A stretch of 64,000 nt of DNA, taken from positions 1 to 64,000 of IMG/VR virus record IMGVR_UViG_3300032316_000329; one strand, 5' to 3'. This DNA is from a virus. The notes under the pieces were generated by a model. The model ran no database searches. It saw nothing but the letters and a program-made list of their open reading frames with translations, and was not told where the DNA came from. The position numbers were made by a program, and so were the translations under genes. Numbering within the stretch: position 1 is the first letter of the stretch; every line of letters starts with the position of its first letter. Below, one piece after another: positions 3,714 through 37,702 of this stretch.

Positions 3714-4835
3714 ATGGCAAAACAACCTGAAATAAAGTATCTTACAGGTGGTGAACAAACTACTGTAAATTCCACCATCACCGAACTATTTCCATGTCTC
3801 GCTTTTAATAGTGGTGCCAGACCAAAAAGTTGGCAAGAAATGGAATCGTTTATTAAAGGTGTAAATCTAAAAGGTAAAAGAACTGAAAAAACATTTGTGA
3901 ATAATAGCAATGCCAAGGCAGCAGAAACATTTATTAAAAAGTTGGATTTAATTCGACCTAAAATGAAGGAAGAAAAACTAAAAAATGCCTGTGCTATCAC
4001 CGATTATCTCTATGACTTGAATAAAAAAAGGGCAATATCCTATGTTGTATGGGGTTATAGAGAGAAACCAAAAGGTGTTCCTGCCGGCCATGCTGGTGAT
4101 ATATTTGTATTCTTCACAGACAAAGCAAGTCCTGCCATATTGGGCGTATCATTAAAGGCAGGTTCGGAATCATCAAAAGAACCTAAATTAAATAGTTATG
4201 TAAAAACAACTCTAATGAAGCCTATTTGGAAAAAAGCGGCGCCCAACGCTTTAGATGAATTAAAAAACGAATTATGGGTTAATGTTTATTCTAAAATACC
4301 TAAACTACCTAAGATGGTAAATAAAGATAATTATTATACAACCGTTGGAACAAAAGAAGCATTAAGGGTTCATCCCGCTTTGATTGAGGCTCTTATTGAG
4401 TTTTTTGAAAGCAACCCTAAAAAGTTTGATGAATTATATGGTGTTATGAACCGTTTATGCCGACAAAAAATGGCTAGTGTTATCAACAAAAACTTTGACA
4501 CCACAAAAAAATGGATTAGAGAAGAGTTTAGACTTGAAAGCGGTGATAGTAAGAAAGTAGAATGTCCTTTAGTCCTTGTAAAGGCAATAGGGCAGAAATA
4601 TGATATAAATGAAGATAAACTCGCCTCATTCATAAGATTGGCTACATCTGCCAAGGCATATCTGAAAGAGGATTCGGTACAAGAATGGTTTATTGATCTT
4701 ACCAATAATAAGAAAGAAAAGATTACATTATTAATGACTATTCGATCCGATTCAGAATTTCGTAGGTCAAAACCAAAAGGTAAGTTAGGAACATTTGTTG
4801 GTCTCAAACTTTTGTATAGAGGTGTTAAAAAGTAA
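3714..4835 (+). CDS. Putative PD-(D/E)xK nuclease-fold protein
   Basis: AGDIFV...ILGVSLKAG motif; late promoter at 3682. Confidence 0.5.
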   Translation: MAKQPEIKYLTGGEQTTVNSTITELFPCLAFNSGARPKSWQEMESFIKGVNLKGKRTEKTFVNNSNAKAAETFIKKLDLIRPKMKEEKLKNACAITDYLYDLNKKRAISYVVWGYREKPKGVPAGHAGDIFVFFTDKASPAILGVSLKAGSESSKEPKLNSYVKTTLMKPIWKKAAPNALDELKNELWVNVYSKIPKLPKMVNKDNYYTTVGTKEALRVHPALIEALIEFFESNPKKFDELYGVMNRLCRQKMASVINKNFDTTKKWIREEFRLESGDSKKVECPLVLVKAIGQKYDINEDKLASFIRLATSAKAYLKEDSVQEWFIDLTNNKKEKITLLMTIRSDSEFRRSKPKGKLGTFVGLKLLYRGVKK

Positions 4836-6076
4836 TGCTTAAATTCAAACAACACCTAACCGAGTCTGCCGCAGAGAAAGATCGTCACCTCACACATATC
4901 GAGGATGCCGTTCTTGAAGGTGGTGTTGCTGGCACTCGCAATGCTATACAGTTTTTAATCTCGTTAAGAGATATGTTTGCCGATGATGGCAAAACACTAA
5001 AAGAGGCCCGTGGTGGTCTTATTCTTAGAACTAAGTTCGATGGTGCACCGGCACTCTATGCCGGTATCAATCCTGAAAACGGAAAGTTCTTCGTAGGTTC
5101 TAAATCAATATTTGCCAAGAATGCCAAACTTAACTACACCGTTGCTGATATTCGGAGTAATCATAGCGGTGGTTTGGCAGAAAAGTTAGAGACTGCGTTG
5201 AAATACCTACCAGAACTAGGTATTACTGATATCATTCATGGTGATTTTATGTATTCACGAAATGAACTAAAATCGGAAACCATAGATGGTAAAAAATATA
5301 TCACGTTTCGCCCTAACACGATCACGTATGCTGTTCCGGAAGGTACGACACTCTCTCGCCAGGTACTTTCTTCTCGAATGGGAATTGTTTTTCACACTAC
5401 TTATCACGGTTCCTCTATGTCTACTCTCCAAACTCATTTCGATGTTAACATAGGGAAATTAAGACCATCTAAGAATGTTTGGTATCGTGAGAACAAGTTT
5501 ATGGATGTTACTGGTCGTGCCACGTTAACAAAATCTGAGAACGATAGACTATCCAGTATTCTCACACAGGCCGGTGGTTTGTTTAGAACCATCCCTGCTT
5601 CTCTATTAAATCAACTCGCAACAAATGAAACATACCGTGTGCCTATTATGACCTATATGAACCAGAAGGTTCGTGCTGGTCAGCATATGGGACCAAACTT
5701 TGTTAATGAGGTTATGAATTTCATTGCGGATAAATACAACAAATCTATTAATGATGCCAAACGTCCTGATACCAAAGCCAATCGTAAAAGAGAAAAAGAT
5801 GCGATTATGCGTTGGTTTCATCAGAACAGGGTCGGACTAAAAAGCATTTTCGAGTTGCAGAACCTTTTCATTGATGCCAAAACTATGTTGATTCGTAAGT
5901 TTAATCAGGTTAACGATATTGGTACCTTTATTCATACACCTGAAGGTGGTTTTAGAGTAACTACACCAGAAGGATATGTTGCTGCTTGGAGTTCTGGTGG
6001 TGATGCTGTTAAATTGGTAGACCGTATGGAATTTTCAAGAACAAACTTCCTCGCCACAAAGAACTGGGGAAAATGA
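4835..6076 (+). CDS. Ligase-like covalent nucleotidyltransferase with capsid-targeting-like N-terminus
   Basis: TKFDGAP (motif I KxDG), IIHGDFM, PEGYV, AVKLV; N-terminus MLKFKQHLTE. Confidence 0.6.
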   Translation: MLKFKQHLTESAAEKDRHLTHIEDAVLEGGVAGTRNAIQFLISLRDMFADDGKTLKEARGGLILRTKFDGAPALYAGINPENGKFFVGSKSIFAKNAKLNYTVADIRSNHSGGLAEKLETALKYLPELGITDIIHGDFMYSRNELKSETIDGKKYITFRPNTITYAVPEGTTLSRQVLSSRMGIVFHTTYHGSSMSTLQTHFDVNIGKLRPSKNVWYRENKFMDVTGRATLTKSENDRLSSILTQAGGLFRTIPASLLNQLATNETYRVPIMTYMNQKVRAGQHMGPNFVNEVMNFIADKYNKSINDAKRPDTKANRKREKDAIMRWFHQNRVGLKSIFELQNLFIDAKTMLIRKFNQVNDIGTFIHTPEGGFRVTTPEGYVAAWSSGGDAVKLVDRMEFSRTNFLATKNWGK

Positions 6077-6832: not shown

Positions 6833-8833
6833 ATGAAAAAAATAGTATTCACATTCGGCCGATATAATCCGCCTACCACAGGCCACGCAGAATTAATTAC
6901 ATATGCGGTAAAACTGGCACAGAAAAAAGGTGCCGAGCATCGTATCTATACTTCCCAATCACACGATCCTTCCAAGAATCCATTGGCACCAAAACAGAAG
7001 ATGGCGTTTCTTCGCCAGATTTTCCCTGGTGTAAACTTTGTGGATGATCCATCTATGAAAACAGCATTTGCTATTGCCAAGAAACTAGCAGATCAAGGTT
7101 ATGAAGATGTTACATTTGTTGTTGGTGATGATCGTGTAAGAGAGTTTACTATACAACTTGGTAAATATGTAAAACCAAGAACAGACAAAGATTTTGATCC
7201 TAAGAAGCATTATCCATTTAAACATTTTCAGGTTGTTTCATCTGGTGCTCGTAAAAAAGGTATTTCAGGTACAGACCTGCGCGCCGCTGTCCGTAGAGGT
7301 GACTTCGCTACATTTGCCAAAGCATCTGCTGCCAGGGATAAATCACTAGTAAGACAGATTTTCTCCGCTACAAAGGCACAACTAAAAGAACAAGCACTAA
7401 ATGAAGATATGACACGCAAGGAATTTGATGGTCATCTAAAGTCATTCATGAAGTTTACCGCTGACAAACTTGGTTTTGATGAAATGCCAGAGGTCATCTA
7501 TAAAGAACCAGACGACCATGGTGACCAACCATCTTTTGGTGGTTATGCACCTGGTGAAAAGAAACTTGTTGTTATGACTAAAAACCGCCATCCGATGGAT
7601 ATCTTTAGAACCGTAGCACATGAGTTAGTTCACCATAAACAGAACCTTGACGGTCGTTTAGGAAAAGATATCGCACATGAAGGTTCAACTGGTTCCGATA
7701 TTGAGAACGAGGCCAACTCTGAAGCAGGTAAGGTAATGCGTTGGTTTGGTAAGTCCAACCCAGATATGTTTGGTAAGTCATTCGTTATTGAAGGCTATGC
7801 CATTCTATTGGGCGGTGTACCAGGTTCCGGTAAAGATAAGGTTCTCAAAGAGGCTATTTTACCACACGGTTTCAAGGAAGTATCACAAGAAAACTTTAAA
7901 CTTGATGAATGTACCGGTGAAAATCTCGTTGTAAACGGTACCATGTCAGGTTATGAACAAACCAGACAAATCAAAGATATTCTAGAATCCGCTGGTTATA
8001 AAACCATGATGGTCTTTGTTAATACATCAGACGAAGTTTCAAAACAGAGAAATGAATCCCGTGCCACTAAGGGTGGCCGAGTTATTGCTGAAAATGTCCG
8101 CTTCTCAAAGTGGCAGTCGGCACAAATCAATTTAGAAAAGTATGATAGACTATTTGAAAAAGTCATTGAGGTCAAGAATGATTTTGATGTAAATGACATT
8201 GCAGATACTTGGTCAAAACTTATGGAATCAGTATCAAAGGAAATTGTAGAGTTTACACTATCCGATGCCGACCGTAATTTTGAACAAATGCTAAACGAGG
8301 TCGGTGGTGCTGGTAATTGGGGCACACCTAAACTTACACACCGCTACCAGAAAGACACACCAGGTCAAACAATTGGGTTTAGACCTATGAAAGTATTGAG
8401 ATTTAAGAATAAGATGAAAAATGAACAGAAGAACCAAAGTAAAGGTCCTTCACCAAGTTTACAAATCAGTGCTGATAGAATAGGCCAAGAAATAGGATTC
8501 GCAAAGAGTCCAGGTTTCGGCACACCATTTGATGACTTTAGTGTGGGTATTAGTCCATCCGTTATTAACGATCCAATAGGTCGTTGGATGGTCAAAGAAG
8601 AAACTAAAAGAAGATTTAAAGAGAAATATGGAAAGTTGGCCGAACAAAAGATTAGGGAAACGGCCGAGAGATTAAAGAAAGCACAATATGAAAGTCTAGT
8701 GGATCCATATGCAGGTGGTGGTCAAGGCGCTACACCTAACTCCGGTAATGTAGAAGATATAAGACCGGATATAAATGCAGAAGATGAAAAAACTAGTCTA
8801 TTCAGAAAAAGAAAACATAAATATACTAAATAA
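6833..8833 (+). CDS. Multidomain protein: cytidyltransferase-like + HEXXH peptidase + P-loop kinase
   Basis: FTFGRYNPPTTGH and ISGTDLR (CTP_transf-like); AHELVHHKQ; GGVPGSGKD..NGT..RNESR. Confidence 0.8.
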   Translation: MKKIVFTFGRYNPPTTGHAELITYAVKLAQKKGAEHRIYTSQSHDPSKNPLAPKQKMAFLRQIFPGVNFVDDPSMKTAFAIAKKLADQGYEDVTFVVGDDRVREFTIQLGKYVKPRTDKDFDPKKHYPFKHFQVVSSGARKKGISGTDLRAAVRRGDFATFAKASAARDKSLVRQIFSATKAQLKEQALNEDMTRKEFDGHLKSFMKFTADKLGFDEMPEVIYKEPDDHGDQPSFGGYAPGEKKLVVMTKNRHPMDIFRTVAHELVHHKQNLDGRLGKDIAHEGSTGSDIENEANSEAGKVMRWFGKSNPDMFGKSFVIEGYAILLGGVPGSGKDKVLKEAILPHGFKEVSQENFKLDECTGENLVVNGTMSGYEQTRQIKDILESAGYKTMMVFVNTSDEVSKQRNESRATKGGRVIAENVRFSKWQSAQINLEKYDRLFEKVIEVKNDFDVNDIADTWSKLMESVSKEIVEFTLSDADRNFEQMLNEVGGAGNWGTPKLTHRYQKDTPGQTIGFRPMKVLRFKNKMKNEQKNQSKGPSPSLQISADRIGQEIGFAKSPGFGTPFDDFSVGISPSVINDPIGRWMVKEETKRRFKEKYGKLAEQKIRETAERLKKAQYESLVDPYAGGGQGATPNSGNVEDIRPDINAEDEKTSLFRKRKHKYTK

Positions 8834-17054: not shown

Positions 17055-17257
17055 TGTTAAAATTTACTAATTCCTCAGAGGGCCGAAATGGTGATCCTCT
17101 TTATCTAAACAAGGACTGGATTGTATCCGTTTATGAAAATGCAAACGAAGGCGGATCATTACAGACTATAATTTTTGGTGGACCTGGTGCAGGTATACCA
17201 TTTCAAGTAGAAGAAAGTCTCGGTGAGGTTATTAAGATTATTGAAGGTGAAGAATGA
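17051..17257 (+). CDS. FlbD-like small protein
   Basis: PLYLNKDWIVSVYE...VEESLGEVIKII pattern. Confidence 0.5.
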   Translation: MMLKFTNSSEGRNGDPLYLNKDWIVSVYENANEGGSLQTIIFGGPGAGIPFQVEESLGEVIKIIEGEE

Positions 17258-17934
17258 ACGACGCCAAAATTATTGCTTTAACTAATCCTATTCTTTCTGC
17301 ATGGGAAACAGGAACAGAAAGTCCGATTGGCGCAGAGGCATTCATTGCTTATACCGCCAGAGTATCAAATCCAAGCAATCAGAGTAACACACTAACAGCA
17401 CCAAAACTCCTATCATATCTAATCAAACATAAACACTGGTCGCCATTTGAAATGGTTTCTGTCACAATGGAAATCAATACAACCCGTGATATCTCACATC
17501 AGATTATCCGTCATCGTTCTTTTTCGTTTCAAGAGTTTAGCCAGCGTTATGCTGACCCAACTAAAGACATGTCTTTTGTAACAAGAGAGGCAAGACTACA
17601 AGACGCCAAGAACCGTCAGAATAGTATTGCAACAAGTGATAAAGAGTTGGAGAATAAATGGTATGAACAGCAACGGTGGGCGATCATATTTGCTAAAGAA
17701 GAATATAATAAAGCAATCGATAATGGCATTGCCAAAGAACAGGCAAGAGCAATTCTACCAGAAGGTCTAACCGCAACTCGTCTATATATGTCAGGGACAC
17801 TTCGTTCTTGGATTCATTACATCGACGTTCGTGCGGAAGTAGGCACACAGAAAGAACACCGTCAGGTTGCTTTGGCGGCACAGAAAGAAATTTTACAGCA
17901 TTTTCCATCACTAAGGGACTATTGGCAAGAATAA
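17254..17934 (+). CDS. thyX: Flavin-dependent thymidylate synthase
   Basis: HWSPFE, RHRSFSFQEFSQRY, KEQARAILP. Confidence 0.95.
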   Translation: MNDAKIIALTNPILSAWETGTESPIGAEAFIAYTARVSNPSNQSNTLTAPKLLSYLIKHKHWSPFEMVSVTMEINTTRDISHQIIRHRSFSFQEFSQRYADPTKDMSFVTREARLQDAKNRQNSIATSDKELENKWYEQQRWAIIFAKEEYNKAIDNGIAKEQARAILPEGLTATRLYMSGTLRSWIHYIDVRAEVGTQKEHRQVALAAQKEILQHFPSLRDYWQE

Positions 17935-17946
17935 GAGGAAGTAAGA

Positions 17947-19842
17947 ATGGACAGTTTATATCAAGAGTTTATTTACAAAAGCAGATATTCACGTTATCTA
18001 CCTGAATTGAATAGAAGAGAAAATTGGGAGGAAACAGTTGAACGCTATCTTACCTTTATGCATAATCACCTCACCAGTAATTATAGCTATGATATGGGTC
18101 CTGTTCGTGAGAAGGTAAAGAAAGCAATTATTGACCTCAAGGTTATGCCATCTATGAGAGCATTGATGACCTCCGGTAAGGCATTAGAAAGAGACAACAC
18201 TTGTGGTTATAACTGTTCGTTTCTTCCTATTGATGACCCTAAGGCCTTTGATGAGGCTATGTTTATTTTATTATGTGGCACAGGTGTTGGGTTCTCCGTT
18301 GAACGGCAGTTTATCAATCAGTTGCCAGAGATTCCAGAAAAACTATTTGACTCTGAAACCGTAATCGTCGTAAGAGACAGTAAGGAAGGATGGGCAAAGG
18401 CTCTCCGTATGCTTATTGCGCTTCTCTATACGGGCGAAGTTCCAAAGTGGGACCTGGCCAAGGTTCGACCGGCAGGTGCTCCTCTAAAGACATTTGGTGG
18501 TCGTTCATCTGGACCAGGCCCACTTTCGGAACTATTTAAGTTTACTGTTAAGATGTTCCGCAATGCTCATGGTCGCCGTCTTACCTCACTTGAATGTCAT
18601 GATATCATGTGTAAGATTGGAGAGGTTGTGGTGGTCGGTGGTGTGCGTCGGTCTGCTATGATATCACTATCTAATCTATCAGATGACCGTATGCGTCACG
18701 CTAAGGCAGGTGCATGGTGGGAAGCAAACCCACAGAGAGCGTTATCAAACAACTCAGCCGTGTATAATGAGAAACCAGAAATCGGTTCATTCATGTCCGA
18801 GTGGGTATCACTATACGAGTCAAAATCAGGTGAGAGAGGATTATTCAGTCGTGAAGCATGTCAGAAAATTGCTAAACGAAATGGACGCCGAGACCACGAA
18901 CAAAATTTTGGAACAAACCCATGTTCTGAAATCATCCTTAGACCATACGGTTTCTGTAATCTTACAGAGGTCGTCATACGAGCAGCCGATACTATTGAGG
19001 ATGTTAAAGAAAAGATTGAGGTTGCTACTATACTCGGTACTTTCCAATCTACTTTAACAGACTTTCCTTATCTAAGAAAGATTTGGGTTAAGAACGCCGA
19101 AGAAGAAAGACTGCTTGGTGTTTCTTTTACAGGTATCTATGACTCCAAACTATTCAACAACCCACACGATAAAGAGATTAAGGCACGCCTTGCTTCTCTA
19201 CGTGATTATGCTATTGAGGTAAACAATGGACTCGCAACTACTCTTGGAATCAATCCCTCTGCTGCTATTACTTGCGTTAAACCTTCTGGTACTGTATCTC
19301 AACTATGCGATTCGGCCAGTGGTATCCACCCTCGCCATTCTAACTTCTATATTCGTCGTGTTCGGGCTGATAATAAAGATCCTCTCACACGGTTTATGAA
19401 AGACAAAGGTGTGCCTTGGGAACCAGATGTTATGAAGCCTGAGTCCACAACTGTATTCTCTTTCCCAATGAAAGCACCAAAGGGCGCAGTAGTAAGAGAC
19501 GATATTGACGCAATCAAGCACCTGGAGCTATGGGCAGTCTACCAAGAGGCATGGTGTGAGCATAAGCCATCCGTCACCATCAATGTTAAAGAAGATGATT
19601 GGATGGACGTGGGTGCGTGGGTGTATCGTCACTTTGATGAAATGTCCGGTGTGTCATTTTTGCCACACGATGGAGGCAGTTATCGCCAGGCACCTTATGA
19701 GGAAATCTCTAAGGACCTTTATGAAGCAATGCTGCCAACTATACCAACTCATTTGGATTGGGACACTCTACAAGAGTTTGAGGACAATGTGGAAGGTGTC
19801 CAAACTTTAGCATGTACCGCTGCTGGAGGATGTGAGATATGA
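17947..19842 (+). CDS. nrdJ: Class II (B12-dependent) ribonucleotide reductase
   Basis: MPSMRA, YNCSF, TNPCSEI, CNLTE, TCVKPSGT, C-terminal CxxxxCEI; no beta-subunit gene nearby. Confidence 0.9.
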   Translation: MDSLYQEFIYKSRYSRYLPELNRRENWEETVERYLTFMHNHLTSNYSYDMGPVREKVKKAIIDLKVMPSMRALMTSGKALERDNTCGYNCSFLPIDDPKAFDEAMFILLCGTGVGFSVERQFINQLPEIPEKLFDSETVIVVRDSKEGWAKALRMLIALLYTGEVPKWDLAKVRPAGAPLKTFGGRSSGPGPLSELFKFTVKMFRNAHGRRLTSLECHDIMCKIGEVVVVGGVRRSAMISLSNLSDDRMRHAKAGAWWEANPQRALSNNSAVYNEKPEIGSFMSEWVSLYESKSGERGLFSREACQKIAKRNGRRDHEQNFGTNPCSEIILRPYGFCNLTEVVIRAADTIEDVKEKIEVATILGTFQSTLTDFPYLRKIWVKNAEEERLLGVSFTGIYDSKLFNNPHDKEIKARLASLRDYAIEVNNGLATTLGINPSAAITCVKPSGTVSQLCDSASGIHPRHSNFYIRRVRADNKDPLTRFMKDKGVPWEPDVMKPESTTVFSFPMKAPKGAVVRDDIDAIKHLELWAVYQEAWCEHKPSVTINVKEDDWMDVGAWVYRHFDEMSGVSFLPHDGGSYRQAPYEEISKDLYEAMLPTIPTHLDWDTLQEFEDNVEGVQTLACTAAGGCEI

Positions 19843-20264
19843 ATAGGATTCCAAAATTAATCTATTTGACTGTTATTGTCTTTGCATTTTTAACGTGTGG
19901 TTTAAAAGCGAAGGCAGAAACATATATTACCATCAGCAAATCACAGCAAATGATGCAGGTTGATAGTGATTATGGTTCTTATCAGTGGCCGGTTTCAACG
20001 GCACGTAGGGGTTATTATACCCCTACGGGAACATTTCATCCATATTCTCTTCAACCAATGCACTACTCAAGGAAGTATGATAATGCGCCAATGCCACACT
20101 CTATTTTCTTTTCTGGTGGATATGCTATCCACGCTACTCCTCATACAGGTAATTTGGGCCGTCCTGCTTCTCATGGTTGCGTTCGTCTACACCCAAGTCA
20201 TGCCTCTACTCTCTATAACATTGTAAAGCATGACCCTGACACGACTATTCGTATCGTGCCTTAA
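19839..20264 (+). CDS. L,D-transpeptidase (YkuD family)
   Basis: WPVSTAR, YAIHAT...ASHGCVRL; N-terminal signal/TM. Confidence 0.9.
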   Translation: MNRIPKLIYLTVIVFAFLTCGLKAKAETYITISKSQQMMQVDSDYGSYQWPVSTARRGYYTPTGTFHPYSLQPMHYSRKYDNAPMPHSIFFSGGYAIHATPHTGNLGRPASHGCVRLHPSHASTLYNIVKHDPDTTIRIVP

Positions 20265-20301
20265 CTGTCATAAAACGGTTAATGTCGTTCCACTATAAAT
20301 A
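20265..20301 (+). promoter_or_regulatory. Pho box plus overlapping -10 / late promoter
   Basis: CTGTCATAAAACGGTTAA (20265-20282), 11 nt upstream of TATAAATA (20294). Confidence 0.6.
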
Positions 20302-20328
20302 TTGGTGCCTTTAACCGAAGGAGCGGAG

Positions 20329-21066
20329 TTGAGTAGTAAGAAGAAAAAATATAGAGCAATCTTTATATCCGATGTTCACCTTGGCACCAAATACTCTAAT
20401 GCTGAAAAGTTATTAGAGTTCCTCAAAGAAACTGAAGCTGAAAGATATTATCTCGTAGGAGATATCATTGATGGATGGATGATGCGAAAAAAAGTCTATT
20501 GGCCTCAGGCACACAATAACGTTGTCCAGTTTTTTCTGAAACAATCAAAAAAGACCGTTGAGGTTATCTTTGTTACTGGTAACCACGACGAGTTCCTTCG
20601 TGAATACACTGGAACAGAAATGGGTAACATTAAACTAGTGAATGAAGCAATACATCATGGCGAAAATGGTAAAAAATACCTTGTTATACACGGCGACCAG
20701 TTTGACCTTGTTACGATGAACGCCAAGTGGCTTGCCTTAATTGGTGGATGGTTGTATGATAGAATGATTGACTTGAATAGATATATGCAGAATATATATC
20801 ATATACTAGGTATACGTGGTTTTTCTCTCTCATCATGGGCAAAATCCAACGTTAAGGAGGCAGTAAACTTTATCGGTGACTACGAAAAGGTAGTTTCAAA
20901 TGCAGCCAAAAGGAGATGCGTCGATGGGGTTATTTGCGGTCATATACATTCTGTTAATATATCTACTATTTCTGATATTGAGTATATAAACTGTGGTGAT
21001 TGGGTAGAATCCTGCACCGCTATTGTTGAACACCATAATGGAAAGTTTGAGATAATAAGACGATGA
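20329..21066 (+). CDS. plcP: PlcP-type phospholipase C (LpxH-like metallophosphoesterase)
   Basis: FISDVHLG, LVGDIIDGW, GNHDE, IHGDQFD, CGHIH, NCGDWVESCTA; probable TTG start after AAGGAG. Confidence 0.8.
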   Translation: MSSKKKKYRAIFISDVHLGTKYSNAEKLLEFLKETEAERYYLVGDIIDGWMMRKKVYWPQAHNNVVQFFLKQSKKTVEVIFVTGNHDEFLREYTGTEMGNIKLVNEAIHHGENGKKYLVIHGDQFDLVTMNAKWLALIGGWLYDRMIDLNRYMQNIYHILGIRGFSLSSWAKSNVKEAVNFIGDYEKVVSNAAKRRCVDGVICGHIHSVNISTISDIEYINCGDWVESCTAIVEHHNGKFEIIRR

Positions 21067-22055
21067 GTAACATTACTATTTTTACCGATGCATGGGAACC
21101 ACAAATTAATGGTGTGGTCACCACCTTAAAGACAACTATTAAACATCTTGAAAGTCGTGGATACGAGGTCAAGGTGGTTCATCCTGGTATGTTTAAACTA
21201 ACCGTACCACTACAACCCTCAACTGGCATCTATATGCCGCTTTTGCCTATGGGACTTGCTGATGAATATGTCAAGAATGCCGAACATATACACATAGCAA
21301 CAGAAGGAAGCATAGGCCTTGCCGCAAGACATTATTGCAAAAAGTATAAAAGACGTTACACAACATCCTTTCATACTAGATATCCAGAGTACCTATATGA
21401 ACACGCTTATATTCCACCAAGAGTTACTAGCAGGTATTTTCGTTGGTTCCATAGAAACAGCGATTGTGTTATGGTACCTACCCCCGCCATGGTTGATTAC
21501 TGCACTAAAATGGGTATCAAACGAGTAAAGATATGGTCCCGTGGTGTTGATACAGACCTATTCAAACCATCGGATTGGACTAACGTAGGAACTATCCGAG
21601 CCGTTTATGTCGGTAGAGTATCGGCAGAAAAGAACCTAATTGAATACCTTGAGATAAGTAATCCAAATATTAGTAAATATGTTATTGGTGACGGGCCGCA
21701 ACTGGATGAATATAAAGCAAGATATACAGATGCTTATTTTCTCGGTCGTAAAACACAACAAGAAATTGCTGACCTTTTACCAGCATATGATGTGTTTGCC
21801 TGGCCTTCTCTAACTGATACATTTGGATTGGTTGTGTTAGAGGCCATGGCCTGTGGATTGCCTGTTGCTGGATTAGACAACGAGGTAAATAGATATATCA
21901 TTGAAGATGGTAAGTCAGGTATTCTATCAGATAGTTATCATTTTATGGAAGCAATTGTAAAGGCATCTAAACTTAAAAGAGAAGATGCTGTAGCAAGGGC
22001 GAAACAATTTTCATGGGAGGCGGCCACTGACCAGTTCATATCTAATTTAGTTTAA
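21063..22055 (+). CDS. GT4 glycosyltransferase (Agt-like diacylglycerol glycosyltransferase)
   Basis: TDAWEPQINGVVTTL, HIATEG, TTSFHTRYPEY, YVGRVSAEKNL, PSLTDTFGLVVLEAMACG. Confidence 0.85.
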   Translation: MSNITIFTDAWEPQINGVVTTLKTTIKHLESRGYEVKVVHPGMFKLTVPLQPSTGIYMPLLPMGLADEYVKNAEHIHIATEGSIGLAARHYCKKYKRRYTTSFHTRYPEYLYEHAYIPPRVTSRYFRWFHRNSDCVMVPTPAMVDYCTKMGIKRVKIWSRGVDTDLFKPSDWTNVGTIRAVYVGRVSAEKNLIEYLEISNPNISKYVIGDGPQLDEYKARYTDAYFLGRKTQQEIADLLPAYDVFAWPSLTDTFGLVVLEAMACGLPVAGLDNEVNRYIIEDGKSGILSDSYHFMEAIVKASKLKREDAVARAKQFSWEAATDQFISNLV

Positions 22056-22056
22056 C

Positions 22057-22416
22057 ATGACCGAATTGGATAAAATCCTATTAGAACAACTTCATATTGC
22101 CCGACATTTGGCAAAGAAAATGAGAAAGGCAAGGAGAGTTATGGGACTTGATTCCGCCCTCCTTACTCTTCAGGAAATGAATGGAAAGAGAATACAATAC
22201 TTAGAGTATATGATAGAGGATAAAACTTTACTACATAAGAAGATAAGGAAGAAAAGACAAAAAGATAATGACATATTGGCCAGGAGTACCTCATATGAGT
22301 GGTATAGAAACATCATGATAGTATCCAATATTGGTTATAAAATGATGGTAGAGTCCTTTCAGACCTATATGTCCTTCTTTAATAATAAGAAAGGTAAGAA
22401 TGATGGCATTCAGTAA
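22057..22416 (+). CDS. Hypothetical protein
   Basis: Contiguous ORF in operon. Confidence 0.6.
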   Translation: MTELDKILLEQLHIARHLAKKMRKARRVMGLDSALLTLQEMNGKRIQYLEYMIEDKTLLHKKIRKKRQKDNDILARSTSYEWYRNIMIVSNIGYKMMVESFQTYMSFFNNKKGKNDGIQ

Positions 22417-22630
22417 CGGTTCCCAAATACTAGACCAGATAATTGAAAATCTGGTAGATAGCGATGTTTCATATGATGATAGAAAGATTGTCTATGAAAT
22501 CTTGCTAGAGGTCTTTGAGGACTTTGATGCTAAAAATCTTGAAGAATGTTTAGATATGGATAAGGCCTGGGATGAGGTATGGAACGAGAAATATCCACCC
22601 GAGGTAGAAGATTATGAGGATGAAGAATGA
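22400..22630 (+). CDS. Small acidic protein
   Basis: SD GAAAGG; very D/E rich. Confidence 0.7.
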   Translation: MMAFSNGSQILDQIIENLVDSDVSYDDRKIVYEILLEVFEDFDAKNLEECLDMDKAWDEVWNEKYPPEVEDYEDEE

Positions 22631-22776: not shown

Positions 22777-23175
22777 ATGACATGGATACACAATAGAGAA
22801 CCCCTCACAGAAATTCCTGAAAATGCCATTGGTTTTGTTTACCTCATAACAAACCAAGCCAATGGTATGAAATACATCGGCAAGAAGAACTTTTACTTTT
22901 CTAAGACCAAGCAAGTCAAAGGTAAGAAGAAAAGAATAAAGGTCGAGTCTGATTGGAAAGAATATTATGGTTCCAATAAAACTCTTGTCGAACATGTCTC
23001 ACTATTCGGTGAGAATAAGTTCATTCGTGAAATAATCCACCTTTGCTATACTAAGGGGGAAATGACATATTACGAAACAAAGGCAATCTTTGCCGATGAT
23101 GCGGTTATTTCCGAAAAGTATTATAATGATTGGGTAATGTGCCGAGTAAGGAAAAATCATATAAAAAAGACTTGA
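22777..23175 (+). CDS. GIY-YIG (Seg-like) nuclease domain protein
   Basis: GFVYLITN..YIGKK..WKEYYGS..REI..YYN. Confidence 0.8.
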   Translation: MTWIHNREPLTEIPENAIGFVYLITNQANGMKYIGKKNFYFSKTKQVKGKKKRIKVESDWKEYYGSNKTLVEHVSLFGENKFIREIIHLCYTKGEMTYYETKAIFADDAVISEKYYNDWVMCRVRKNHIKKT

Positions 23176-23223
23176 CATTCCGTTCTTGAAGTGATAATAT
23201 GTAACATCATGAAAGGAAGCACT

Positions 23224-23463
23224 ATGAAAGTTGTTGTATATTCCAAAGATTCCTGTCCTTATTGCGTCAAGGCAATAAACCTCCTAGAAACCACCGACCT
23301 TGAGTTTGAGGTAATGAAACTTGAAGAACACTTTTCCCGTGAAGAACTCTTGGAATGGTATCCTTCTGCAAAAACTTTTCCTGTAATAACACTTGACAAC
23401 ATGTGGATAGGAGGATATAATGAGTTGGTAGAAGTTGTTGATGAATGGAAAAAGGAAGACTAA
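23224..23463 (+). CDS. nrdC: Glutaredoxin
   Basis: CPYC, TFPVI, IGGYNEL; promoter TTGACA-17-TAATAT at 23172. Confidence 0.9.
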   Translation: MKVVVYSKDSCPYCVKAINLLETTDLEFEVMKLEEHFSREELLEWYPSAKTFPVITLDNMWIGGYNELVEVVDEWKKED

Positions 23464-34010: not shown

Positions 34011-34727
34011 ATGTCAAGAAAGAGTAGAAGAAATAATAACCAATCGCATGAGAACCAAAATCACGCTGAAAAAAATCATTTTGAATTGCGTCATATTAAA
34101 CCACTTACAGTAAACCAAGAGAGAGTGTTTGACGCTTATTATGCTGGCCAAAATCTCATGCTACATGGTTATGCCGGTACCGGTAAAACTTTTCTATCAT
34201 CATATCTAGCAATAAAGGACGTTTTAACACAGGACATATATAAGAAGGTCGTTATCATCCGCTCCGTAGTTCCATCCAGAGACATGGGTTTTCTACCAGG
34301 AACCGAGAAACAAAAAGCGGAAGTATATGAACAACCTTACCAGGAAATTTGTGATGATTTATTTGGTCGTGGTGATGGATATAAAATATTGAAGTTAAAG
34401 GGCCTCGTTGAGTTTACTACCACTTCCTTCTTGCGTGGTACTACATTTAACGATAGTATTATCATTGTTGACGAGTGCAATAATATGTCATTCCAAGAGA
34501 TTGATACAGTTATGACCAGAATTGGCACTAACTCCCGTATCATCTTTTGTGGTGATTATCGCCAGTCTGATTTGGTTAAACCACATGATAAGACAGGTAT
34601 TAGAGAGTTGATGGCCGTTACTCGCCGTATGCCATCATTTGACCATGTTGAATTTAATATTGAGGACATCGTTAGAAGCGGTGTTGTGAAAGAATACATT
34701 ATTCAAAAAACCGAAATGGGACTATAA
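34011..34727 (+). CDS. phoH: PhoH-family ATPase
   Basis: GYAGTGKT, MGFLPG, FLRGTTF, IVDECNN, CGDYRQSD, DIVRSG. Confidence 0.95.
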   Translation: MSRKSRRNNNQSHENQNHAEKNHFELRHIKPLTVNQERVFDAYYAGQNLMLHGYAGTGKTFLSSYLAIKDVLTQDIYKKVVIIRSVVPSRDMGFLPGTEKQKAEVYEQPYQEICDDLFGRGDGYKILKLKGLVEFTTTSFLRGTTFNDSIIIVDECNNMSFQEIDTVMTRIGTNSRIIFCGDYRQSDLVKPHDKTGIRELMAVTRRMPSFDHVEFNIEDIVRSGVVKEYIIQKTEMGL

Positions 34728-37275: not shown

Positions 37276-37380
37276 TGGTTCAACAGACCATCGTGGTGTT
37301 GCTGCACCACAAATGGAAGAGTTTGAGAACCAAGTAGAATAAACTTGCCAAAAATTTCAATATATGTTATAAATATATCT

Positions 37381-37620
37381 GCTTAGGTCGTTGAGAGACG
37401 TAGAATAAGCGGAAGAGACCTCGGGGCGGTACCGAGCGGGTCCACCATAAGCACATTAAGGTATGTTTAATTGGGCCCGAAATAGGATTGATCTACGTGG
37501 TAAAGGCGTAAGGAGACCGAAAGCAAACGTTAGGTGCCAACGATAACATTGCACCATTTGATATTGCTCTAGCAGCATAATCATTGGGCTGGTGACTTGC
37601 CTAGAAACAGAAAAGTCACA
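37381..37620 (+). ncRNA. ssrA: Circularly permuted two-piece tmRNA
   Basis: Acceptor piece ends CGGGTCC-A-CCA (37447); coding piece starts GGGCCCGAAATAGGATTGA (37473), giving G3.U70; tag ORF 37536-37580 ANDNIAPFDIALAA*. Confidence 0.9.
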
Positions 37621-37702
37621 CCTTTTCCATCACTGTGTTTTACCGCACATGCAAAATTGACTCTTCCATACTAAATAATTTTGTAAGAAACAGGAGAGAG
37701 TT

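Follow-up and report, generated by a model that had tools for sequence, protein, structure and literature searches.

The first 64,000 nucleotides of IMG/VR virus record IMGVR_UViG_3300032316_000329 (hereafter the window) contain two adjoining genes, plcP and agt, that we analysed together with the promoter region in front of them and with their counterparts in other phages and in bacteria. The full record of 165,114 bp is rated 99% complete, has a G+C content of 38.8% and contains the genes of a T4-like myovirus, such as those for a gp6/gp7-type baseplate wedge, the tail sheath, the tube, the head-tail adaptor and the gp55 late sigma factor. Our analysis indicates that this gene pair is probably a phage copy of the bacterial plcP-agt lipid-renovation operon that resides in a T4-like “pmoC-phage”. 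With it, phosphorus would be withdrawn from host phospholipids and phosphorus-free glycolipids would take their place. Expression of the pair would be controlled in two layers, one involving a PhoB-type box and the other a phage late promoter. The assignment of the two genes themselves is strongly supported by sequence comparison.

The plcP-agt operon has been described in marine heterotrophs (PMC4796936) and in Burkholderia (PMC13691135), and it is present in all type II methanotrophs, Methylocystis included (PMC9239053). Members of this group are known from S. meliloti (SMc00171), Phaeobacter MED193, Pelagibacter HTCC7211 (PB7211_983/960) and A. tumefaciens (Atu2297), as well as from M. trichosporium OB3b and B. 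cenocepacia (BCAL2364-65). A plcP-agt knockout of M. trichosporium OB3b is viable, has lost the glycolipid glucuronic acid diacylglycerol (GADG) and grows slowly at low phosphate; its intracytoplasmic membranes are loosely packed and its growth on methane at low phosphate is slower (PMC9239053). The phage cassette shares with the bacterial operon both protein families, the gene order, the close coupling of the two genes, an upstream Pho-like box and the catalytic and diacylglycerol-binding residues. However, it is borne by a lytic T4-like phage, has a phage late promoter, and lacks dagK, with an open reading frame termed orf119 following agt. In addition, phage PlcP and Agt are at most 55% and 44% identical, respectively, to their homologues in the sampled bacteria and form viral clades of their own.

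Identity of the two genes

The first gene, plcP (20329-21066, + strand), encodes a protein of 245 amino acids of the PlcP-type Mn-metallophosphoesterase family, starts with TTG and matches Pfam Metallophos at 49 bits. The second gene, agt (21063-22055, + strand), encodes a glycosyltransferase family 4 (GT4) protein of the Agt/GTcp type that is 330 amino acids long and matches Pfam Glyco_transf_4 and Glycos_transf_1. The two reading frames overlap at an ATGA junction. A preliminary description of the window, made from its letters alone, had placed an open reading frame with a GNHD motif and a GT4 open reading frame at these positions, with a Pho-box-like repeat and a late promoter motif upstream, and our coordinates agree with it for all four features.

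The translation of plcP contains the metallophosphoesterase motifs SDVH, GDIIDG, GNHDE, HGD and GHIH. Its only solved homologue is LpxH, for which the GNRD motif of the known structures (5k8k, 8qk2) aligns with GNHD of the phage protein at an E-value of ~1e-5 and with ~25% identity. LpxH and the phage protein belong to a common metallophosphoesterase superfamily and are of similar length, but the phage protein differs by its GNHD motif, by its location in a separate clade, and by scores that are below the cut-offs of both LpxH equivalog models (51.9 bits against a cut-off of 134 for NF003743; 49.3 bits against a cut-off of 190 for TIGR01854). True LpxH proteins are present in Uliginosibacterium (264 bits) and in a Sedimenticolaceae metagenome-assembled genome (MAG; 251 bits). 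Each of these genomes also has a separate plcP-like gene at ~50 bits, and the phage protein scores about the same as such bacterial paralogues. In a maximum-likelihood tree, a long branch with 100% SH-aLRT support parts two true LpxH sequences, used as the outgroup, from 70 plcP-like sequences. The phage proteins are located inside the PlcP clade, where the viral members form a clade of 22 sequences with 91% support.

Among bacteria, the nearest homologues of the phage protein (46-55% identity) are from Methylocystis, Methylocystaceae, Ancylobacter, Hyphomicrobiaceae and Bauldia, and some are encoded by genomes of Campylobacterota and of beta- and gammaproteobacteria. Of the named loci, the closest are the plcP-agt loci of Methylocystis, in which plcP encodes a protein 52-55% identical to that of the phage. 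A plcP homologue is present in 107 of 301 sampled alphaproteobacterial genomes, a count that takes in one unpublished genome, G245, on which no other claim depends. By homology, phage PlcP is predicted to act as a phospholipase C on membrane phospholipids.

A full-length homologue of phage Agt (35-44% identity) is encoded directly downstream of plcP in named bacterial loci. This plcP-agt order is observed in Methylocystis, Ancylobacter, Hyphomicrobiaceae and Chromatiales, and of the 30 best alphaproteobacterial plcP loci, 29 have an Agt homologue immediately downstream. The Pelagibacter enzyme contains the motifs GRVAXEKN and FPSXTDTFG, along with a His-Asp dyad in which Asp replaces the Glu of other GT4 enzymes, while an Arg and a Trp hold diacylglycerol (10.1101/2021.03.25.437072). 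Phage Agt carries the corresponding sequences GRVSAEKN and WPSLTDTFG, and FHT, SRGVD, TDTFG....E and SWE are also conserved in it. Conservation across 41 viral and 46 bacterial aligned sequences extends to both motifs and to the His, Arg, Trp, Gly and Glu residues, the key positions having been mapped through the motifs quoted in 10.1101/2021.03.25.437072 rather than by alignment with the HTCC7211 sequence. The viral Agt sequences form one group in the tree with 100% support. From diacylglycerol and UDP-sugars, phage Agt would be expected to synthesize glycolipids such as monoglucosyl diacylglycerol (MGDG) or GADG.

The preliminary description had read the pair as the bacterial plcP-agt operon and not as an LpxH with a lipopolysaccharide (LPS) transferase. 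The model scores, the GNHD motif, the tree, the gene neighbourhood and the Agt motifs all uphold this reading, and the phylogeny against LpxH that it had proposed as a check splits off true LpxH at 100% support.

The promoter region of the cassette

The 64-nt gap between the upstream ykuD gene and plcP contains three elements on the + strand. A Pho-box-like direct repeat, CTGTCAT-AAAA-CGGTTAA (20265-20282), is followed after an 11-nt spacer by the late-type motif TATAAATA (20294-20301) and then by a Shine-Dalgarno sequence, AAGGAG (20318-20323), that was read from the sequence and is part of a leader, TAACC.AAGGAG, conserved in relatives. The likely start of plcP is the TTG codon at 20329, which is located 5 nt past AAGGAG and at a position where relatives retain either TTG or GTG, rather than the TTG at 20302, which abuts the promoter motif.

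Analysis of the late-type motif indicates that ATAAATA occurs 29 times on the + strand of the genome, and that 11 of these copies fall within 60 nt upstream of gene starts where ~2 are expected (5-fold). Seven of the 11 precede structural genes that include those for the sheath, tube, baseplate, adaptor and fibre. The 8-mer TATAAATA is not enriched as such, with 9 copies on the + strand and 1 on the - strand against ~12-14 expected per strand. Because ATAAATA clusters upstream of starts, mostly those of structural genes, we conclude that NATAAATA is a phage late promoter. Together with the encoded gp55, this establishes a T4-type late promoter in front of the cassette, as the preliminary description had claimed. 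Relatives retain the late motif whether or not they have the box, and TATAAATA may double as the -10 element of a PhoB-type promoter.

The first half-site of the box matches the PhoB consensus at 7 of 7 positions and is followed by an AAAA spacer, and the box ends 11 nt before TATAAA(TA), which is classical PhoB geometry. The box is the sole site in the 165-kb genome with no more than 4 mismatches to its 18-mer, and with the exact AAAA spacer only 0.08 such sites are expected per window. No sigma-70 -35/-10 pair was found in front of plcP. Downstream of the cassette, perfect or near-perfect sigma-70 promoters of the form TTGACA-17-TATAAT are present at 23393-23421 and 23172-23200 of the window, and perfect promoters of this kind nearby indicate that host-type promoters are in use, which fits early transcription of this region by the host polymerase.

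The box is kept in eight distinct relatives that have three different genes upstream of it, while the 8-9 nt between the box and ATAAATA vary freely across relatives. A core of GT.A.AAA.C.GT is invariant in nine aligned promoters, one of which precedes pstS in a second phage lineage (TTGTAAT-AAAA-CCGTCAT, 10 nt, TTAAATA in L082, one of the viral loci that we designate by L numbers). This core places an invariant GT at the matching position of both repeats, 11 nt apart (GT-N9-GT). Pho boxes with 4 or fewer mismatches are also present in 18 of 50 upstream regions of bacterial plcP genes, compared with 1 of 50 controls, and the usual pattern in these bacterial boxes is a first repeat that is strong and a second that is weak. 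For example, the Ancylobacter plcP promoter contains TCGTCATAAAAGGGTGAT where the promoter of phage locus L026 contains TCGTCATAAAACGGTTAA. The pstS promoters of Methylocystaceae include CTGTCATAAAAC, TCGTCACAAAAC and CTGTCAT-TTTT-GTGTCAT. In three Methylocystaceae genomes the word YGTCAYAAAWC occurs 38 times, against 6 times for the reversed control. The genes that follow this word are mixed, with pstS and a phosphate-selective porin among them but also unrelated genes and intragenic sites, so its enrichment gives only partial support. The box has the PhoB-type geometry that the preliminary description had ascribed to it, its GT-N9-GT core is invariant in diverged relatives, and it resembles words found in the pstS and plcP promoters of the family to which the host probably belongs. 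On balance, PhoB control of the cassette through this candidate box seems somewhat more likely than not.

Several other identities for the box were considered and rejected. A general class of phage promoter is ruled out by the uniqueness of the box in the genome, a sigma-70 -35 element inside the box would have the wrong spacing, and a CtrA site (TTAA-N7-TTAA) would likewise be wrongly spaced, with an upstream TTAA that is not conserved. The sequence is also not palindromic.

A second intergenic Pho-like site, ATGTCAT-AATG-TTGTTAT, is located at positions 146237-146254 of the full record (G000), 75 nt upstream of pmoC, and ACTAAATA comes after it. The pmoC and plcP sites are the only two correctly oriented sites in the genome that have 3 or fewer mismatches and lie no more than 100 nt upstream of gene starts.

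Likely host and distribution among phages

Outside the window, at G000 146330-147100, the phage encodes a PmoC/AmoC protein (PF04896, 362 bits), and a full-length comparison with PmoC of a Methylocystis sp. MAG gives 84% identity. The window itself contains an Alphaproteobacteria-type permuted tmRNA (37341-37622, + strand; Rfam RF01849, 103 bits; RF04321, 91 bits), although ARAGORN reported neither a tRNA nor a tmRNA in the window. Phages with pmoC and genomes of 159-168 kb have been described from freshwater lakes and assigned to Methylocystis (Chen et al. 2020, PMC7674155). The presence of pmoC together with an alphaproteobacterial tmRNA therefore identifies this virus as a pmoC-phage of the published type, and it resembles these phages in genome size class, in T4/cyanophage-like kinship, in its stand-alone Methylocystis-like pmoC and in its origin from a lake metagenome (PMC7674155). 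A Methylocystis-type alphaproteobacterial methanotroph is the most likely host. The main text and part of the supplements of PMC7674155 contain no mention of plcP, agt, lipid remodelling or phosphate control, and the plcP-agt-pmoC neighbourhood shown in this analysis is a difference from pmoC-phages as published.

The survey of viral databases that the preliminary description had suggested identified a plcP homologue at 44 IMG/VR loci, nearly all of which have the plcP-agt pair. In about 40 IMG/VR relatives, PlcP is 74-87% identical to the protein encoded in the window and the adjoining Agt is 62-93% identical. These relatives were detected by protein-level searches only; a nucleotide search of the phage collection with positions 19800-22500 gave zero matches. 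In many relatives pmoC is on the same strand as plcP-agt and 0.4-1.7 kb downstream of it (for example L058 6115-6876, L052 6082-6825 and L032 6636-7391), and of 10 related viral records, mostly fragments, 6 contain pmoC. One sub-group has an HNH endonuclease gene inserted exactly between plcP and agt (L079 5285-6001; also L080 and L081).

Homologues of plcP also occur in more distant phages. In a second T4-like lineage, with a PlcP of 57% identity, gp46 precedes pstS, a GT2/GT21-type transferase gene and plcP (L082 4300-6762; also L083 and L084). Here the same phospholipase would work with another glycolipid partner, the GT2/GT21-type enzyme, and a Pho-like box is located before pstS. In a probable pelagimyophage, plcP is beside curli genes. 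Pelagibacter phage Mosig (MT647606) has a full-length plcP homologue (44% identity) that is divergent from pstS, and Synechococcus phage S-SRM01 (MW015081) has a full-length homologue with 38% identity, both of which are annotated as LpxH. In contrast to the cassette in the window, the genes of these two phages have no adjacent Agt gene and are located on separate long branches of the tree. The 150-nt pstS/plcP intergenic region of Mosig (L001 3845-3994) contains TTAAC(A) repeats, in part with a spacing of 11 nt, ahead of GTATAAT, and these may constitute a SAR11- or cyanobacterial-type Pho box. The cyanobacterial type (PyTTAAPyPy repeats) fits this region by eye but does not fit the window.

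Viral genes labelled lpxH have been filed under LPS biosynthesis in virome surveys (PMC10653327, PMC9611531). The preliminary description knew of no phage with this pathway, and we likewise found no paper in the literature that recognises a phage plcP, yet plcP homologues under the lpxH label are already present in published phage genomes. What appears to be new is a membrane-phosphorus pathway that is carried by phages, is widespread under a wrong label and has a physical link to pmoC. Already known are the pathway in bacteria and the existence of PhoB-tuned phage genes in cyanophages. Regarding the latter, Zeng and Chisholm reportedly described in 2012 that the cyanophage phosphorus genes pstS and phoA are under PhoB control. 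Like these genes, the plcP-agt cassette would place a gene of the host Pho regulon under a Pho box of host type in a T4-like phage, so that the two-component system of the host could tune it to the phosphate supply. The difference is that cyanophage pstS and phoA boost the uptake or scavenging of external phosphate, whereas phage plcP-agt would tap internal membrane phospholipid and rebuild the membrane with glycolipid.

Proposed mechanism, alternatives and neighbouring genes

In the mechanism that we propose, PlcP would function as a cytoplasmic Mn-dependent enzyme that strips host phospholipids of their phosphorylated head groups, with diacylglycerol remaining in the membrane. The translationally coupled Agt would then move glucose or glucuronic acid from a UDP-sugar onto this diacylglycerol to generate phosphorus-free glycolipids, and since diacylglycerol would be converted to glycolipid the bilayer would stay intact. 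The phosphorus of the head groups would enter the soluble pool, from which host phosphatases would release phosphate for nucleotide synthesis, and the freed phosphorus could feed the neighbouring nucleotide synthesis genes (thyX and ribonucleotide reductase, RNR) and so be used for phage DNA. Two layers of expression are envisaged. The PhoB-type direct repeat, present in place of a -35 element, would be bound by host PhoB and provide an early switch-on by host RNA polymerase under phosphate starvation, while the overlapping NATAAATA would provide late transcription by the phage gp55 holoenzyme in any infection.

A number of observations weigh against this proposal, and some of these concern phosphate sensing. 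The second half-site of the box, CGGTTAA, matches the consensus at 4 of 7 positions. When a free 4-nt spacer and up to 3 mismatches are allowed, the genome has 10 sites where ~18 are expected in random genomes. The match to the consensus is thus not above chance genome-wide, and the weight of the box comes from its position and from comparative evidence. Many relatives do not have the box and exhibit only the late promoter, or have plcP coupled or fused to an upstream open reading frame, so that phosphate control is at most one layer. Furthermore, the phage promoters share one ancestor, so their conservation is partly inheritance, and the late promoter alone could explain expression. It is conceivable, if rather unlikely, that the same enzymes are expressed without phosphate sensing from a plain late gp55 operon, in which case the box would be the site of another regulator or an inherited remnant; that NATAAATA functions as a late-promoter class in this genome and that gp55 is encoded here would fit such an operon. 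This alternative does not readily accommodate a box core that is invariant while the adjoining spacer varies freely, the recurrence of the box, 10-11 nt and TAAATA before pstS in the second phage lineage, or the 11- to 12-nt words, enriched over their reversed control, that match Methylocystaceae pstS and plcP promoters.

Other observations concern the enzymes and what they are for. The trees contain no experimentally characterised PlcP or Agt reference, with the assignment leaning on the Methylocystis loci, the published motifs and the operon structure, and the phage plcP clade is deep, with no more than 55% identity to any bacterium, so a drift in its specificity is conceivable. Neither an above-cut-off LpxH nor LpxI (PF06230, PF17930) was detected in three Methylocystaceae MAGs (G004, G306 and G307), so that plcP-like proteins might conceivably have a lipid A role there, although the MAGs may be incomplete; LpxI is present in Ancylobacter aquaticus. 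A divergent LpxH with an LPS or cell-wall glycosyltransferase that modifies lipid A or LPS would be in line with these MAGs, with LpxH being the sole solved homologue, and with the database labels of relatives (“UDP-2,3-diacylglucosamine pyrophosphatase LpxH” and “glycosyltransferase involved in cell wall biosynthesis”). That reading is highly improbable and is largely excluded by scores far under both equivalog cut-offs, by GNHD in place of GNRD, by true LpxH paralogues that coexist in the same bacterial genomes and are separated at 100% support, and by the Agt-specific Asp-for-Glu TDTFG motif with its diacylglycerol-binding residues. The OB3b knockout also loses its glycolipid, and the viability of this deletion mutant argues that plcP is not the LpxH of these methanotrophs. 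A different possibility is that lipid remodelling serves the membrane and not phosphorus supply, either by sustaining intracytoplasmic membranes and particulate methane monooxygenase (pMMO) together with phage PmoC or by altering the envelope so that superinfection or grazing is blocked. The proximity of pmoC on the same strand in many relatives, its presence in 6 of 10 related records, the adjacent ykuD envelope gene, and the loose intracytoplasmic membranes and slower methane growth of the OB3b mutant at low phosphate (PMC9239053) are all consistent with such a role. However, the bacterial pathway is part of the Pho regulon, plcP is tied to pstS and not to pmoC in other phage lineages, and the cassette is located amid nucleotide-synthesis genes. 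We regard a purely membrane-directed purpose as unlikely, and such a role is also compatible with phosphorus release, so both could hold.

A broader and more tentative reading, which may be correct but which we consider doubtful, is that plcP-agt and pmoC form a membrane island of methanotroph phages that couples phosphorus-free membrane renovation to pMMO upkeep, and that many viral lpxH genes of aquatic viromes are in fact plcP. If this is true, then infected cells in phosphate-poor lakes would yield membrane phosphorus to phage DNA and still oxidise methane. Membrane phospholipid would also constitute a general, overlooked phosphorus store for T4-like phages of Alphaproteobacteria. The known phosphorus-related phage genes pstS, phoA and phoH are either uptake-related or of unknown role, and with phage plcP-agt a virus would for the first time have access to phosphorus stored inside the cell. 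Such a pathway would tie viral infection to phosphate limitation and methane oxidation in lakes. As a rough estimate, the phospholipids of a bacterium contain on the order of 10^7 phosphorus atoms, which is similar to what a burst of tens of genomes of 165 kb would require, and the amount is larger in methanotrophs, whose internal membranes are stacked. Additionally, a systematic mis-annotation of viromes (lpxH, “LPS biosynthesis”) would be corrected. These ideas are directly testable, as mutants, assays and lipidomics exist for the genetically tractable M. trichosporium OB3b, a relative of the likely host genus.

Regarding the genes around the cassette, thyX (17254-17934) and a class II RNR gene (17947-19842) are both located upstream, as the preliminary description had noted. 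The cassette does not follow them immediately as it had proposed, since an envelope gene for a ykuD-type L,D-transpeptidase with a signal peptide (19839-20264, + strand; Pfam YkuD, 69 bits) intervenes after RNR. In a Hyphomicrobiaceae MAG (L016 3119-3520), a ykuD homologue (47%) is the divergent neighbour of plcP-agt, so the three genes may derive from one bacterial neighbourhood. On the downstream side, orf119 (22057-22416, + strand) begins 1 nt past agt and has a counterpart at the equivalent position in ~20 related contigs (39-50% identity), with no Pfam or PHROG match. We considered orf119 as a DgkA-like third gene, in analogy to plcP-agt-dagK of Burkholderia, and rejected this assignment because the protein is charged, soluble and not membrane-like and matches no family. 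The phoH gene reported in the preliminary description is present at 34011-34727 (+ strand; PF02562, 150 bits) and is relevant as context only, while pstS (PF12849) was not found in the 165-kb phage genome. Elsewhere in the window, large proteins encoded at 6833-8833 and 4835-6076 have cytidylyltransferase-like and phrog_455 matches.

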